Below, one piece after another: positions 121 through 63,160 of a stretch of 64,000 nucleotides of DNA. The position numbers and the translations under genes were made by a program. The number at the start of each line of letters is the position of its first letter. Positions within the stretch are counted from its first letter, which is position 1. Source of the stretch: a bacterium (GTDB taxonomy: Bacteria; Sysuimicrobiota; Sysuimicrobiia; Sysuimicrobiales; Kaftiobacteriaceae); assembly GCA_044868695.1 (NCBI GenBank), contig JBIOWP010000084.1, positions 1-64,000 on the forward strand. Reading direction: 5' to 3'. Below the pieces are notes generated by a model, which was given only the letters and a program-made list of their open reading frames with translations, did no database searches and had not been told where the DNA came from.

Positions 121-134
121 CACGATACCCGATT

Positions 135-263
135 ACCCTCTCTCGGTGCCTGCGAGGTTAGCTGACGGGCTCGGGCCGAGAGAGTGCCCTGCTCGCTTCC
201 GCGAGCTTCGCCCCAATAACCTGGTTCCCCCGCTCCCTGCGTTGCCGCAGGGATTTGGCGATA
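135..263 (-). ncRNA. Cyclic di-AMP (ydaO/yuaA) riboswitch controlling a gene left of the window
   Basis: Minus strand reads CGCCAAATCC-hairpin-GGAGCGGGGGAACCA...TGGGGCGAA-hairpin-CAGGG...CCCGAGCCCGTCAGCTAACCTCGCAGGC, matching the ydaO consensus blocks. Confidence 0.9.
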
Positions 264-286
264 ATGCGTATTTGAATATTGAGATT

Positions 287-2651: not shown

Positions 2652-2745
2652 TGGCGGAGGGCTGTAGGAATCGAACCTACCGGAGACCGACTGGCCTCCC
2701 GCCGGTTTTGAAGACCGGAAGGGCCACCAGGCCCCATTGCCCTCC
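2652..2745 (-). tRNA. selC: tRNA-Sec (anticodon UCA)
   Basis: 94-nt cloverleaf with 6-bp D stem, anticodon arm CCGGT-CTTCAAA-ACCGG, long variable arm, GTTCGATT T loop and encoded CCA; directly downstream of selAB. Confidence 0.97.
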
Positions 2746-2756
2746 GCGCCACCACA

Positions 2757-2790
2757 GAGACCAGGGACCGGGGACCCGGGACCAGGACCA
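2757..2790. repeat. Heptamer tandem repeat (GGGACCN)x4-5
   Basis: GAGACCA GGGACCG GGGACCC GGGACCA GGACCA between selB and selC; same unit as 35518-35595. Confidence 0.8.
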
Positions 2791-2813
2791 AGCCAGCGAT
2801 ACCCCTGAGGACG

Positions 2814-4736
2814 TCACGGTTGCTGCTGGGGTAAGGCGGCTGGATTCAACAGTACCCGGGCATCTCCGATCCGGCGGGTCAGCTTGATCCTATCGAAGTA
2901 CTCCAGGACGGTCAACGCATACTTCCGGCTGGTCTGCAGACGGTCGCGCAGCCCCGCGACGGTGATGGTGCCCATCTTGTCGATTTCCTCGGCGACGACC
3001 GCTTTGACTTCGTCGAGTACGCCGCGGTCGAAGAAGATCCCGGGCGCGATTTCAACCACCGTGCCCTCGTCGAGCAGCATGCGGAGCATCCGCTCGAACA
3101 CCGCTAACTCCCCTGCCCCTTTGGCCATCTCGTCGCGCGAGGGAGGTGCAAAGCGGCCGCTGCGCAGCAGGCGGACGACATGGTCTCGGGCTTTCACGTC
3201 GGGCCCGCCGAGAGACGGTGTGTAGCCCGGACGCCGGACGAACTCGCCGGTCTCCTCGACGACGTTGCCCGCTGCCATCTGGGCCAGCACATGAGCGTAC
3301 AGCCGGCTGTCACCTGCACCCAGCGCCTTTGTCTTCAGTTCATCTTTAGGAATGCCGACCCGCCAGGGATGTGCGTCGTGGAAGGAGCCGATCTCCCGTG
3401 TGATGGCGTTGGTCAGCCCGTCCGCCGCCTGCCGGTGGAAGAGATGTCCCCGGAGCTCCAGGATACTGCCGCGGGCTACCATCGCCGAGATCGCTTCATC
3501 TACTTGAGTCCGTCCTGCCGAAACCTTCTTGACGAGTTCCTCCGGTGTGGTCCCCTGCCGGCCGGAGTCCAGCACGGCGGCTTCTACGCGGTCGGACAGG
3601 CCTCCGGCGGTGGCCTGCTCGATGGCCTCGACGCTGGCCGCCCCGCGCCGCCGTTTCGGGGCATGCGCATTGATAATCTCGCCTCCACCGACGGTCGTCA
3701 TGGGCGAGAATCGCCGGATCACGAAGGGATCGCCGTCGGCAGCGACCACAAGGCGTTCCAGCTTCACCTGGGCGACCGTCGAGGCGTTTGGTTCCAGCCG
3801 CGGCCGGTCCAGCAGCACCACACGTCCGATTGCCTCATCGGATCCGATGTAGAGCCGGACCCGCCCCAGGTGGGCCAGGGCCGGCGACCCGGCGAGCAGC
3901 GTGAGGTGGATGTCCACCAGACTGGTCGGCCGGAAGACGCCGGGCGTGCAGAGGACGTTGCCGCGTTCGACATCACTTTTCTCGATCCCGGCGAGGTTCA
4001 CGGCCACCCGCGACCCGGCCATGCCTGCCGCCACCGTCTGGCCGTGGGACTGGACCCCTCTCACCCGGATCTCGCGGCCCTGCGGCAGGATTTCCAGCGT
4101 ATCGCCGGTCGCAATCCGGCCACTCCACAATGTGCCGGTGACGACGGTGCCGAACCCCGGCATGACAAACGCCCGATCGATGGGGAGGCGGGCCGGCGCG
4201 TCCACCTCATGCGCCGGCAGTTGATCGAGCAGGCGGTCCATGGTCTGCACCAGCGCGGCGGTCCCCTGCCCTGTTTTGGCCGACACGTCAACGACCGGCG
4301 CACCGTCCAGAAAAGTACCGGCCACCAGCGTCTTCACATCTTCTCTCACTAGCGAGAGCCAGGACGGTTCTTCGACGAGATCGACCTTGTTCAGGACGAC
4401 GACGCCGGCCCGGACCGGGAGGAACCGCAGGATATCCAGGTGCTCGCGGGTTTGCGGCATGATCCCTTCGTCGGCGGCGATGACGAGCAGGACGAGGTCG
4501 ATGCCGGTCGCTCCGGCCAGCATGTTCTTGATCAGACGCTCATGGCCCGGCACGTCCACGATACCGACCCGCCTGCCGCTGGGGAGGTCGAAGTGGGCGA
4601 AGCCGAGGTCGATCGTCATGCCCCGGCGCCTCTCTTCATCGAGCCGGTCGGGGTCGGTGCCGGTGAGGGCTTTAACCAGCGCGCTCTTGCCGTGATCGAT
4701 GTGACCAGCCGTCCCCGCGACGAAGAGCGTACGCAT
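2814..4736 (-). CDS. selB: Selenocysteine-specific elongation factor SelB
   Basis: [30 protein letters not shown] motifs; C-terminal winged helix with [13 protein letters not shown]. Confidence 0.97.
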
Positions 4737-4748
4737 TTACGAATCACT

Positions 4749-4800
4749 ATTCACGATATTCACTCTTGACGTTCTATTCACGATTCACTCTTGACGTTCT
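4749..4800. repeat. Imperfect tandem duplication (27 + 25 nt) at the selA-selB junction
   Basis: ATTCACGATATTCACTCTTGACGTTCT followed by ATTCACGATTCACTCTTGACGTTCT. Confidence 0.8.
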
Positions 4801-6160
4801 TGAGCGCCGTAACGACGGTCTCTTCATCGCCCGGTAAGAGCGTGCGCACATCGAGGAGCACCGCATCGCTGGCAATGCGTCCGAAGACGGGCGGCCGGTG
4901 CGACCTGAGGCGCTGCTCGAGCGTACCCGGCGGGAGCGGTGAGACGATGGCCACCGCGACCGACAGGAGCCGCGCGTCCGGCAGGGATCCGCCGCCGGCT
5001 TCGGCCGCGGTCGCCTTCAGATCAACACGCCAGGTATCAGGGACGGCGGCCGCAATCGCCTCACGCAGCCGCTGCGCCCGCTCCTGCAGCTCTTCCAGTC
5101 CGGCGGACAGCATCCGCAGGACCGGTACCGCTGTCCACACCGCCTTCGGATCAATGTACTCCTGGAGGGTGGCGGCCAGCGCCGCGTAGTCCAACTTATC
5201 CATGCGAACCGCCCGCGCCAGAGGATGGGATCGAATGGCCTCGACCGGTTTGGTCCGGCCCACGATAAGGCCGGCCTGCGGACCGCCGAGTAGCTTGTCA
5301 CCGCTGAATGTGACGACGTCGCATCCCGCGGCGACCGCGTCCTGCACGGTGGGTTCGTAGGGCAGGCCGCGCTCGCGCAGGTCGACCAGGCAACCGCTGC
5401 CGAGATCGAACAGCACCGGGATTCCGTGACGCCTGCCCACCTCGACGAGATCTGCGGCGGACGTTTCCGCGACGAACCCGCTGACGGTGAAGTTGCTGCG
5501 ATGGACTTTGACGAGCAGAGCGGTATTCGGGGTAATCGCCCGTTCGTAATCCCGGAGGTGAGTGCGGTTCGTCGTTCCCACTTCGACCAGCACCGTTCCA
5601 CCGGCGGCCATGACCTCGGGCATACGGAACGAACCGCCGATCTCCACCAGCTCCCCGCGGGAGACGATCGCCTCCTTGCCCCGCCCCAGGGCGGCCAGGG
5701 CCAGGAGTACGGCCGCGGCGTTGTTGTTGACGGCGTGCGCGGCCTCGGCGCCGGTCAGGCGGGCAAGCAGCCGCTCGACATGCTGGTGGCGAGATCCACG
5801 GCGCCCGGTCTCGATGTCGATCTCGAGCGTCGAATAGCCGGTCATGACCTCCGCGACCGCCCGGGCGGCGGCGTCGGAGAGCGGCGCCCGCCCGAGGTTG
5901 GTATGGAGAATCACGCCTGTGGCGTTCACGGCGCGCGCCAGTGTGACTGCCGCCCGCGTTTGCACGAGCCGCCTGAGGCGGTCCAGCAGCGCCTCTGCTG
6001 ACACGTCCACCTGCTCCGCACGCAGCAGGTGCTCTCGGGCATCGTCGACAATCGTGCGGGCGCACTCGACGATGAGCGGACGCGGATAGCGGCCGGCTCC
6101 GTCCTCTTGAAGGAACTGGGAGGTCAGCCGCTCGACTGAGGGGAGGTGACGTAAGGCCAT
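4778..6160 (-). CDS. selA: L-seryl-tRNA(Sec) selenium transferase
   Basis: NATGVILHTNLGRAP, VNNNAAA, SRGELVEIGGSFR and PLP lysine motif FSGDKLLGGPQAG; ATG at 6160 overlaps the upstream TAA. Confidence 0.97.
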   Translation of the reverse strand: MALRHLPSVERLTSQFLQEDGAGRYPRPLIVECARTIVDDAREHLLRAEQVDVSAEALLDRLRRLVQTRAAVTLARAVNATGVILHTNLGRAPLSDAAARAVAEVMTGYSTLEIDIETGRRGSRHQHVERLLARLTGAEAAHAVNNNAAAVLLALAALGRGKEAIVSRGELVEIGGSFRMPEVMAAGGTVLVEVGTTNRTHLRDYERAITPNTALLVKVHRSNFTVSGFVAETSAADLVEVGRRHGIPVLFDLGSGCLVDLRERGLPYEPTVQDAVAAGCDVVTFSGDKLLGGPQAGLIVGRTKPVEAIRSHPLARAVRMDKLDYAALAATLQEYIDPKAVWTAVPVLRMLSAGLEELQERAQRLREAIAAAVPDTWRVDLKATAAEAGGGSLPDARLLSVAVAIVSPLPPGTLEQRLRSHRPPVFGRIASDAVLLDVRTLLPGDEETVVTALKNVKSES

Positions 6161-6375
6161 TACCGGACGAGCAGTCCGAGCGCGACACCCGCGGCGGCGA
6201 CCAGCACGGTGATCGTGACGATGCGCCGCACGTCGGCCCGCACGCGGGCCATCAGGTCCTCGTCGGTCTGCCACACTGCGGCGGCCGTCTGCGGGCCCGG
6301 CCGCAGCCGGCGGCCGCACCTCTGACAGACGATCTTGCCGCTGGGGTTCTCGGTGCCGCAGTTGGGACACTTCAT
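6160..6375 (-). CDS. Small zinc-ribbon protein with C-terminal TM helix (71 aa)
   Basis: MKCPNCG...CQRCG plus hydrophobic C-terminus; GAGGAGG RBS; overlaps both neighbouring genes. Confidence 0.8.
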   Translation of the reverse strand: MKCPNCGTENPSGKIVCQRCGRRLRPGPQTAAAVWQTDEDLMARVRADVRRIVTITVLVAAAGVALGLLVR

Positions 6376-7220
6376 GCGCGACCTCCTCGAGGCACTGATC
6401 CCTTCTTCTGCTGGTATCGCTCTTTGAGCTCCACAACACACTCCACCGGCACGTATTGGGAACCCGGCGGGACCTTGGTGGCCAGATCACCGCCGTGGAA
6501 GTCCGTGCCGCCCGTGACCAGCAGCCCGTGCTGCTTCGCCACATCCAGGTAGCGTGTGATCATGGCCGGAGTGTGGTCGGGGTAATACACTTCCAGGCCT
6601 TCCAGTCCCGCGTCGACCAGCGCCGGGATCATCTCGTCCCGGACCCCCCACCCCGGGTGCGCGAGGACGGGAATTCCCCCTGCGCGCCGGAGCAGCTGGA
6701 TCGCGTCCTGCGGGCTGACCTTCATCCGTTCGACGTAGGCGGGCCCATTGCGGCCCAGGTACTTGTCAAAGGCTTCCTCGGTGTTCCGGACGGCACCGGT
6801 TTCGACCAGCGCCCGGGCCACATGAGGGCGGCCGACCGCGCCTGAGGCGATGGCCCGCACCCGGGCAAAATCGACCCGGATGCCCAGGTGGTTGAGCTTT
6901 TCCACCATCTTGGCTGCCCGGTTAACCCGGCCATCCCGCAGCCGCTGGAGGAACTCTGCGAACCACGGCTGGCGGTGGTCGATGTAGTACCCCAGCACGT
7001 GGATTTCGGAGTCGTCCACGTCGGTGTTGATCTCAACGGCGGGAATGACCTCGACGCCCAGACGCGTCCCGGCCGCCTGGGCCGCGTTCACACTGTCCGT
7101 GGAGTCGTGGTCGGCGACGGCGAGCACTCCGACTCCGGCGTCCTTGGCCAGGGCGACCAGCGCCTCGGCGGTCAGCAGCCCATCGGAGGCGACCGTATGG
7201 GTGTGCAGGTCAATGCGCAT
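6372..7220 (-). CDS. PHP-domain phosphoesterase (TrpH/YciV-like)
   Basis: DLHTHTVASDG, ADHD, GRPHVA, LAHP and GGTDFHG motifs. Confidence 0.92.
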   Translation of the reverse strand: MRIDLHTHTVASDGLLTAEALVALAKDAGVGVLAVADHDSTDSVNAAQAAGTRLGVEVIPAVEINTDVDDSEIHVLGYYIDHRQPWFAEFLQRLRDGRVNRAAKMVEKLNHLGIRVDFARVRAIASGAVGRPHVARALVETGAVRNTEEAFDKYLGRNGPAYVERMKVSPQDAIQLLRRAGGIPVLAHPGWGVRDEMIPALVDAGLEGLEVYYPDHTPAMITRYLDVAKQHGLLVTGGTDFHGGDLATKVPPGSQYVPVECVVELKERYQQKKGSVPRGGRA

Positions 7221-52716: not shown

Positions 52717-52804
52717 GGGGAACGCGGGAACGGGGGAACGCGGAAACACGATACGGTCCGACGTTAGCGCCGCGTTTCCTCGCTTCCACGTTTCCGTGTT
52801 TCCG
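52717..52804. repeat. Inverted octamer tandem-repeat hairpin between convergent genes
   Basis: SGGRAACR x4 (52717-52748) and YGYTTCCN x4 (52773-52804). Confidence 0.85.
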
Positions 52805-53264
52805 TTAGTTGTTTCAGCGCCTCCAGCACTGCGGCGCTGTGGCCGCTGACCTGCACCTTCGGGAACACTTTCACGATCGTCCCGTGCTCGTCGATGATGA
52901 ACGTCGTCCGCGCGACGCCCCAGTACGTCTTGCCCATCATGGATTTCTCCGCCCAGACCCCGTACCGGTTCGCGACGGCATGATCCGTGTCGGCCAGCAA
53001 TGGGTGAGGAATCCGCAGCTTCTCCTTCCACCTGGCGTGGGACTCCACCGTGTCGGTGCTCACGCCCAGGATCTCCGCGTGCAGGGTCGTATAGGCCGCG
53101 TAGTCGTCACGGAACGCGGTGGCCTCGATGGTTCAGCCGGCCGTGTCATCCCGGACGTAGAACCACAGCACGACCCTCCTGCCGCGAAAATCCGAGAGTG
53201 CCACCCGCCGGCCGTGATCGTCCGTCAGCGTGAACTGCGGAGCCGTTTCGCCTTCTGCAACCAC
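52764..53264 (-). CDS. bcp: Selenocysteine-containing BCP/PrxQ peroxiredoxin (166 aa, Sec44)
   Basis: ORFs 53133-53381 and 52764-53063 share one frame and are joined across TGA 53135-53133, giving WFYVRDDTAG-U-TIEATAFRD at the peroxidatic Cys position; AGGAGGAG RBS before GTG 53264. Confidence 0.9.
53093..53125 (-). promoter_or_regulatory. Putative bacterial SECIS element
   Basis: Starts 8 nt after the UGA: AGGCC-AC-CGCGT [TCCGTGACGACT] ACGCG/GGCCT stem-loop with a G-containing apical region. Confidence 0.65.
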
Positions 53265-53332
53265 TGGAGTCTCCTCCTGCGCGCCACGTGCGCGCACGAA
53301 GACATTAGACCCGGTCCGGCGAACTCCCTGTC

Positions 53333-62974: not shown

Positions 62975-62980
62975 TCACAT

Positions 62981-63160
62981 TTCCCCGCCGTGCCGTGAGG
63001 CAGAAGTTCCCGAACCTGCACTAAGCAGGTGGGTGCCCTCCTGGCCGCTCCTGAGATCCCCGACGTGATGGGGCGTGTCATCGGCGGTCAGAGCCCGGGC
63101 TCCCAGTGTATTCGGTGTTGGATCGGAACTATCGGCCCACACGCACACGGCAGGAACCCT
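62981..63160 (-). ncRNA. ssrS: 6S RNA
   Basis: Closing stem TTCCTGCCGTG / CACGGCGGGGAA, 5' bubble CCAACA...GGGAG, 3' GGCACCCACCTGC-loop-GCAGGTTC; downstream of aspS as in Bacillota. Confidence 0.88.

Follow-up and report, generated by a model that had tools for sequence, protein, structure and literature searches.

Selenocysteine (Sec)-containing peroxiredoxins are not without precedent in bacteria. PrxU of Eubacterium acidaminophilum is reportedly such an enzyme (Sohling 2001) and is listed as experimentally verified. The existence of further bacterial examples, on which the original prediction for this locus relied, is borne out by three sources, in which a TxxU family within COG1225 (Bcp) is tabulated (PMC9312934; PMC13188914; PMC1088965), one of them counting 43 Sec-Prx genes from the Sargasso Sea (PMC1088965). 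In another source, repeated Cys-to-Sec changes are tabulated for Prx, with five events (PMC1794560). A Sec-containing BCP is thus an already known family, and its novelty had been overrated. The same holds for the missing resolving Cys, which was presented as notable and is common in PrxQ, where about one third of the proteins have none according to PMC4749874, which also terms the Pro of the peroxiredoxin motif absolutely conserved.

The gene described here, of the bcp/prxQ type, lies at 52764..53264 on the minus strand of the window, that is, of the whole 64,000-nucleotide stretch of DNA that was analysed. It comprises 166 codons from a GTG start at 53264 to a TAA stop, with a TGA as its sole internal stop and no Cys codon. 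A Shine-Dalgarno-like AGGAGG is found at 53273..53278 (minus strand), 8 nt 5' of the GTG, and a promoter scan gave no site. The ORF listing cuts the frame in two, namely a piece ending at the TGA, which from the GTG amounts to 43 aa, and a 99-aa downstream piece; as had been proposed, these fragments are one minus-strand frame (53264-52764) split by the only in-frame TGA, at codon 44. Around this codon (53133..53135, minus strand), a putative Sec codon, the gene reads FYVRDDTAG-TGA-TIEAT, and alignment with the peroxidatic Cys of solved BCPs places it at the peroxidatic position. The read-through product carries Val37 at the position of the motif Pro and, in keeping with the original prediction, contains no Cys. 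The end of the chain (residues 153-166), which is not conserved, extends into an array at window positions 52717-52810, in the space where the ABC permease gene and bcp converge. The array consists of GGGAACGN-like units and includes an inverted copy, and the genome has arrays of this sort at about 20 further sites.

By profile and by structure, the gene belongs to the BCP/PrxQ subfamily. Its product matches PF00578 (AhpC-TSA) with an E value of 3.7e-37 and 127.5 bits, and reaches 153.9 bits against the BCP equivalog PRK09437, with C scored for U and a cut-off of 140; other peroxiredoxin profile models scored far below their own cut-offs. The AlphaFold model, which was built with Cys at position 44, has a pLDDT of 91 and superposes on BCP/PrxQ structures with TM scores of 0.83-0.91, and the best Foldseek matches are likewise BCP/PrxQ. 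The TxxU motif (T41-A-G-U44) is present inside the PF00578 domain. The catalytic Thr41 of this motif (53142..53144, minus strand) is Thr in 21/21 orthologs, and the catalytic Arg of peroxiredoxins, Arg119 (52908..52910, minus strand), is invariant in the ortholog alignment, aligns with the Arg of solved BCPs and is Arg in 150/150 diverse representatives. The Thr/Ser and the distal catalytic Arg of the strict peroxiredoxin motif are therefore in place as Thr41 and Arg119, and the gene is filed as a BCP-derived variant because the motif Pro is Val37 in 21/21. An atypical 2-Cys BCP it is not, as no resolving Cys is found in helix 2 or 3, nor any Cys in the 21 full-length orthologs.

The in-frame TGA is shared by the whole family. 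In a sample of 60 relatives, a full-length ortholog was found in 20 of the 21 genomes of the same family, the remaining genome having a fragment at a contig edge; the family count of 21 consists of these 20 orthologs and the window gene, and 30 loci were examined when nine from other families are included. TGA44, Val37 and the absence of Cys occur together in 21/21 family orthologs, at 64-72% identity, and these orthologs, with an open and conserved downstream frame, span 7 genera. In all nine loci from other families (9/9), codon 44 is TGY, i.e., Cys44, and is accompanied by Cys49. The Cys/TGA pairing proposed as a check is thus present, and the close relatives, rather than all having TGY without a conserved hairpin, have TGA throughout. 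A true stop, through a pseudogene, a split gene or an assembly error, would explain why gene callers split the frame and why the database entry is a 99-aa fragment, yet this explanation is scarcely credible in view of the same TGA and open downstream frame in 21 genomes. It is further contradicted by the active site, which the downstream fragment alone lacks, and by selection: since dN/dS is about 0.2 on either side of the TGA (0.18 at codons 2-43 and 0.22 at codons 59-105), both halves are under purifying selection. Contigs listed from four other runs also argue against an assembly error, for none differs at 53133-53135; the codon is covered in three of these runs (X3, X4 and X5) but not in X6, and the covering contigs agree on TGA and not on TGC or TGT.

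Additional loci extend this picture. Among 80 metagenome loci, a redundant set collected by patterns from the Val clade, 35 were Val/Sec, 41 Pro/Cys/Cys, two Pro/Sec/Cys and two Pro/Cys without Cys49, and TGA44 was present in 35/35 of the partly redundant Val-type loci. One of these 35 copies has Cys at position 29, and another (L178:601-1053) has an additional TAA at codon 47, which is either a sequencing error or a broken allele. A second set of 80 genome loci, which overlaps the 60 relatives and is not independent of them, held 19 Val/Sec, 60 Pro/Cys/Cys and one Pro/Sec/Arg. Two Val/Sec paralogs (L026 and L127) are carried by one genome, G018.

The machinery required for Sec is encoded nearby. 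As was claimed, selA, selB and tRNA-Sec are in the same window, in a cluster at 2652-6544, about 46 kb from bcp: selC, the tRNA-Sec with a UCA anticodon (2652..2745, minus strand), was found by ARAGORN and by RF01852 (78.3 bits against a gathering threshold of 47); selB, the Sec-specific elongation factor (2814..4736, minus strand), has SelB winged-helix domains and scores 360 bits with TIGR00475 (cut-off 242); and the selA frame (4778..6544, minus strand) scores 574.8 bits with TIGR00474 (cut-off 267.9). The true start of selA is probably near 6154, since the TIGR00474 match begins at residue 131. A selD gene, to be sought elsewhere in the genome, was located on contig C146, where its frame is itself interrupted by a TGA, in a CAG-U motif, so the selABCD set is complete. 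Across the family, selB was found in 16/21 genomes; the five without a match all have a TGA-containing selD, together with selA in three and a clear tRNA-Sec in the two others, which fits incomplete assemblies. Other elements observed in the window are a c-di-AMP riboswitch (133-270, minus strand), a 6S RNA (62978-63159, minus strand) and an archaeal-type fructose-1,6-bisphosphatase (PF01950; 55860-56993, plus strand).

These data also bear on whether UGA could be read as Cys, Trp or another residue through a genome-wide code change or leaky suppression. This reading is very improbable: TGA terminates 756/1496 long well-scoring ORFs and TGG is used normally, the window shows a single tRNA with a UCA anticodon, which is scored as tRNA-Sec, and the local RNA constraint described below is confined to TGA-type genes. 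Genome-wide reassignment was rejected because TGA is the commonest stop. Recoding of UGA is supported by the ortholog TGA codons, the Cys/TGA pairing, the downstream purifying selection, the frozen synonymous sites of the hairpin and the full selABCD set, and UGA44 is predicted with very high confidence to be read as Sec.

A stem-loop within 8 nt of the TGA formed part of the original prediction. The minimum-energy fold does have a stem starting at +8; its energy is at chance level, and the part conserved among orthologs begins at +14. Against shuffled sequences, hairpin energy in four window lengths gave z = 0.02, 0.97, -1.05 and 1.20, none beyond chance, and folding energy was discarded as evidence for a SECIS. 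The likely bSECIS core occupies 53096..53119 (minus strand), +14 to +37 after the UGA, with a 6-bp stem formed by CCGCGU (+14 to +19) and ACGCGG (+32 to +37) and an apical CGUGA. The constraint is seen at synonymous sites. Synonymous variation is absent from only four (codons 50, 51, 52 and 56) of the 59 degenerate positions that are shared by 18 or more of the 21 genes; all four are inside the hairpin, compared with 0/48 outside codons 45-58 (Mann-Whitney p = 1.6e-4, the genes being kin and not independent). In the 21 TGA genes, pS is 0.31 at codons 45-58 versus 0.64 and 0.58 in the flanks, while the same region in nine Cys orthologs has 0.58 versus 0.55 and 0.52. Arg52 is encoded by CGT in 21/21 family and 35/35 metagenome genes, although CGT makes up 9.5% of Arg codons genome-wide and 18/202 of the other Arg codons in the same genes.

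Pairing and geometry point in the same direction. Over 24 sequences, 95.3% of the stem cells are paired, the structure having been drawn from the same sequences that were scored; there is no covariation inside the Val clade, as the three double-change cells come from two outside Sec genes, and covariation was discarded as support. According to the bSECIS rule given in PMC13188914, one of the two leading loop nucleotides is a G, at a distance of 16-37 nt from the UGA. The present hairpin agrees with that geometry: its loop opens at +22 or +25, according to which fold is taken, and its first or second base is G. In 8/10 candidate selenoprotein genes of the genome, the stem begins at +13 to +15. 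A hairpin rule was passed by 5/10 candidates versus 214/3000 random TGAs, a post hoc comparison, as the rule was written after the candidates had been seen and the folded window ran from +13, which favours a match. Altogether, the +14 to +37 hairpin is likely a bSECIS; judging from its conservation and from the established route of Sec insertion, it would be bound by SelB carrying Sec-tRNA, and Sec would then be inserted.

The putative signal begins on the codon that corresponds to the helix-2 resolving Cys of Cys BCPs. Codon 49 (Thr; 53118..53120, minus strand) contributes its second and third bases to the start of the stem and is always NCC, while the residue varies among Thr, Ser and Ala (21/21 family and 35/35 metagenome genes). 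Since NCC is invariant and its two Cs are the first stem bases, codon 49 is now constrained as RNA rather than as protein, and an RNA signal would sit on the codon of a catalytic residue. Position 49 is Cys in 116/150 diverse representatives. The hairpin may have displaced Cys49, or it may have filled a site that was already free. Cys BCPs without Cys49 occur in the same phylum (L128 from G071 and L139 from G073); the G071 protein has Thr49 with an ACC-GCG-TTC run like that of the Sec clade and Cys at position 83, and groups with Cys BCPs. The generalization that Sec always removes the resolving Cys was rejected, as G022, L225 and L228 keep Cys49.

The most unusual feature of the gene is the change of the motif Pro to Val, which had been noticed in the window gene and holds for 21/21 orthologs. 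Val37 (53154..53156, minus strand), at the Pro of PxxxTxxC/U, is fixed at the protein level across the clade and, because Val is invariant while the codon varies (GTC in 14 and GTG in 7), is selected as a residue. Tyr34 is likewise replaced by Trp in 21/21 family genes. By comparison, Pro37 is found in 219/219 nearest full-length database proteins (218 by pattern and one by eye), all of them also with Cys44 and Cys49, in 31/31 BCPs from other families of the phylum, and in 146/150 diverse representatives, where the rest are Ser (two), Leu (one) and Thr (one) and none is Val. A literature search on the conserved proline with valine returned nothing relevant. As a guess, Val37 reshapes the pocket. 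With the motif Pro missing, activity might be reduced or altered.

The idea that Sec requires Val was rejected, because G022, G072, L122, L225 and L228 combine TGA44 with Pro. These separate Pro-keeping Sec-BCP lineages (L125 from G022, L126 from G072, L122, L225 and L228) are Pro/Sec/Cys49 in G022, L225 and L228, Pro/Sec/Ser49 in G072 and Pro/Sec/Arg49 in L122, and selA is present in G022 and G072. Judging from their residues, the three with Cys49 could form an internal Se-S bond. In a tree of 40 rows chosen from among the loci (10 Val-clade, 4 other Sec and 26 Cys sequences), for which the columns of the traits were masked, the Val clade is supported at 100/96 and four changes of Sec state are required. 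A single origin for all sampled Sec-BCPs was rejected (AU p = 0.001). Such a tree fits the repeated Cys-to-Sec events tabulated in PMC1794560.

By analogy with peroxiredoxins, the peroxide would be held by Thr41 and Arg119 and attacked by the Sec44 selenolate, which would thereby turn into a selenenic acid; peroxide reduction in this manner is highly probable. Because the chain offers neither a further thiol nor a further selenol, an outside thiol is proposed to resolve the selenenic acid, which seems rather likely; candidate partners are thioredoxin, a Sec-glutaredoxin, a Sec protein-disulfide oxidoreductase or a small thiol, and the genome has two thioredoxins beside two thioredoxin reductases. 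Selenenylamide formation belongs to the chemistry of glutathione peroxidase. Sec could be inserted here with a first resolution step free of thiols, through a diselenide dimer or a backbone selenenylamide, or the protein could act mainly as a redox relay. Consistent with this alternative, the whole clade lacks Cys, two changes in the active-site loop (Tyr34 to Trp and Pro37 to Val) are fixed, other Cys-type peroxiredoxin-like genes could perform bulk detoxification, and no conserved redox neighbour was found among 19 bcp loci, where the conserved neighbourhood consists of ParA, a small ORF and a divergent HAD hydrolase upstream and an ABC transporter or an aminoacyl-tRNA synthetase downstream. 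It is nonetheless unlikely, considering that Thr41 and Arg119 are intact, that Sec44 starts helix 2 in the model as in canonical BCP, and that 1-Cys peroxiredoxins use an outside resolving donor according to PMC8113037. The preferred reading, held with good confidence, is one intact BCP/PrxQ-type frame, very likely UGA-recoded, with predicted peroxide reduction by Sec44 and likely recycling by an outside thiol. More tentatively, and less probably than not, the family may have rebuilt its active site around selenium, the SECIS taking the resolving-Cys codon and Val37 and Trp34 then becoming fixed as adaptations, which would open the pocket to an outside reductant or to non-thiol resolution; if true, nature would have provided a peroxiredoxin that is active without the motif Pro, and with it a direct means of testing what that Pro does.

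The genome holds nine selenoprotein candidates besides bcp, in answer to the suggestion that more be sought. Eight TGA frames came from a coding-score scan and were picked by eye, so the set is not exhaustive, and 8/8 match Pfam families at redox-type motifs. One small frame (G000:C16:1683-1913; L132) is glutaredoxin/NrdH-like, has UxxC and a stem that begins at +15, and is a candidate reductant of the Sec-BCP. A protein-disulfide oxidoreductase (G000:C96:460-1302; L150), above the TIGR02187 cut-off, has TPT-U-PHC and a 9-bp stem from +14. Two PrdB/GrdB-like UxxC frames (G000:C142:6329-7156 and C52:19067-19972; L151 and L152), both below the PrdB cut-off, have the common hairpin GGUCC-GUG-GGACU. 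The remaining frames are a Na/H-antiporter domain joined to a rhodanese domain that carries LYCA-U (G000:C102:405-1160; L153), a DUF3179 protein in which W-U-PLC is accompanied by a stem starting at +14 (G000:C82:4753-5952; L155), an OsmC-like frame with AAG-U-LT (G000:C63:23713-24177; L154) and a fusion of an AhpC-like UxxC domain with a DsbD-N-like one (G000:C16:11106-12200; L132). A Sec-containing formate dehydrogenase was excluded, the sole molybdopterin-domain match having no internal stop.

These candidates point to a selenoproteome of about ten genes that has been overlooked in what is probably a Sysuimicrobiota genome. No report of selenoproteins in Sysuimicrobiota (CSP1-3) was found, and the term "seleno" is absent from the main texts of PMC11604079 and PMC11962464; BSepDB and the CSP1-3 supplements may list such genes. 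That standard pipelines misread the gene was rightly anticipated, as the protein database holds only a 99-aa fragment without the active site. Because no full-length member of the Val clade was among the best 120 matches of either protein-database search, motif- and protein-based surveys would miss this clade.

In comparison with known systems, the gene resembles the Sec-Prx family (COG1225/PF00578) in its predicted Sec at the peroxidatic TxxU, its BCP fold, its in-frame UGA with a 3' hairpin and its widespread Cys homologs. It differs from that family in a Cys-free chain and in having VxxxTxxU throughout the clade, whereas a 2026 review gives the motif as PxxxTxxU (PMC13188914). Like Cys BCP/PrxQ (PRK09437; 5enu, 5iiz and 3drn), it passes the equivalog cut-off, superposes at the TM scores given above and keeps the Thr and Arg; unlike them, the clade has Val37, Sec44 and Thr/Ser/Ala49, where the nearest Cys proteins, 52-59% identical in the protein database, have Pro37, Cys44 and Cys49. 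With 1-Cys PrxQ (PMC4749874) it shares the lack of a resolving residue and the expected outside reductant, and it departs from them by Sec in place of Cys and by the loss of Pro. It is a predicted Sec-containing peroxiredoxin like PrxU, although not its ortholog (NF040737, 59.6 bits against a cut-off of 270). As a natural exception to the peroxiredoxin motif across a whole family, the Val clade offers a comparison of Val with Pro and of Sec with Cys that would reveal the role of the Pro and whether selenium relaxes the need for it. In essence, this is a gene of a known kind, almost certainly recoded, with one unusual family-wide change in its active site.
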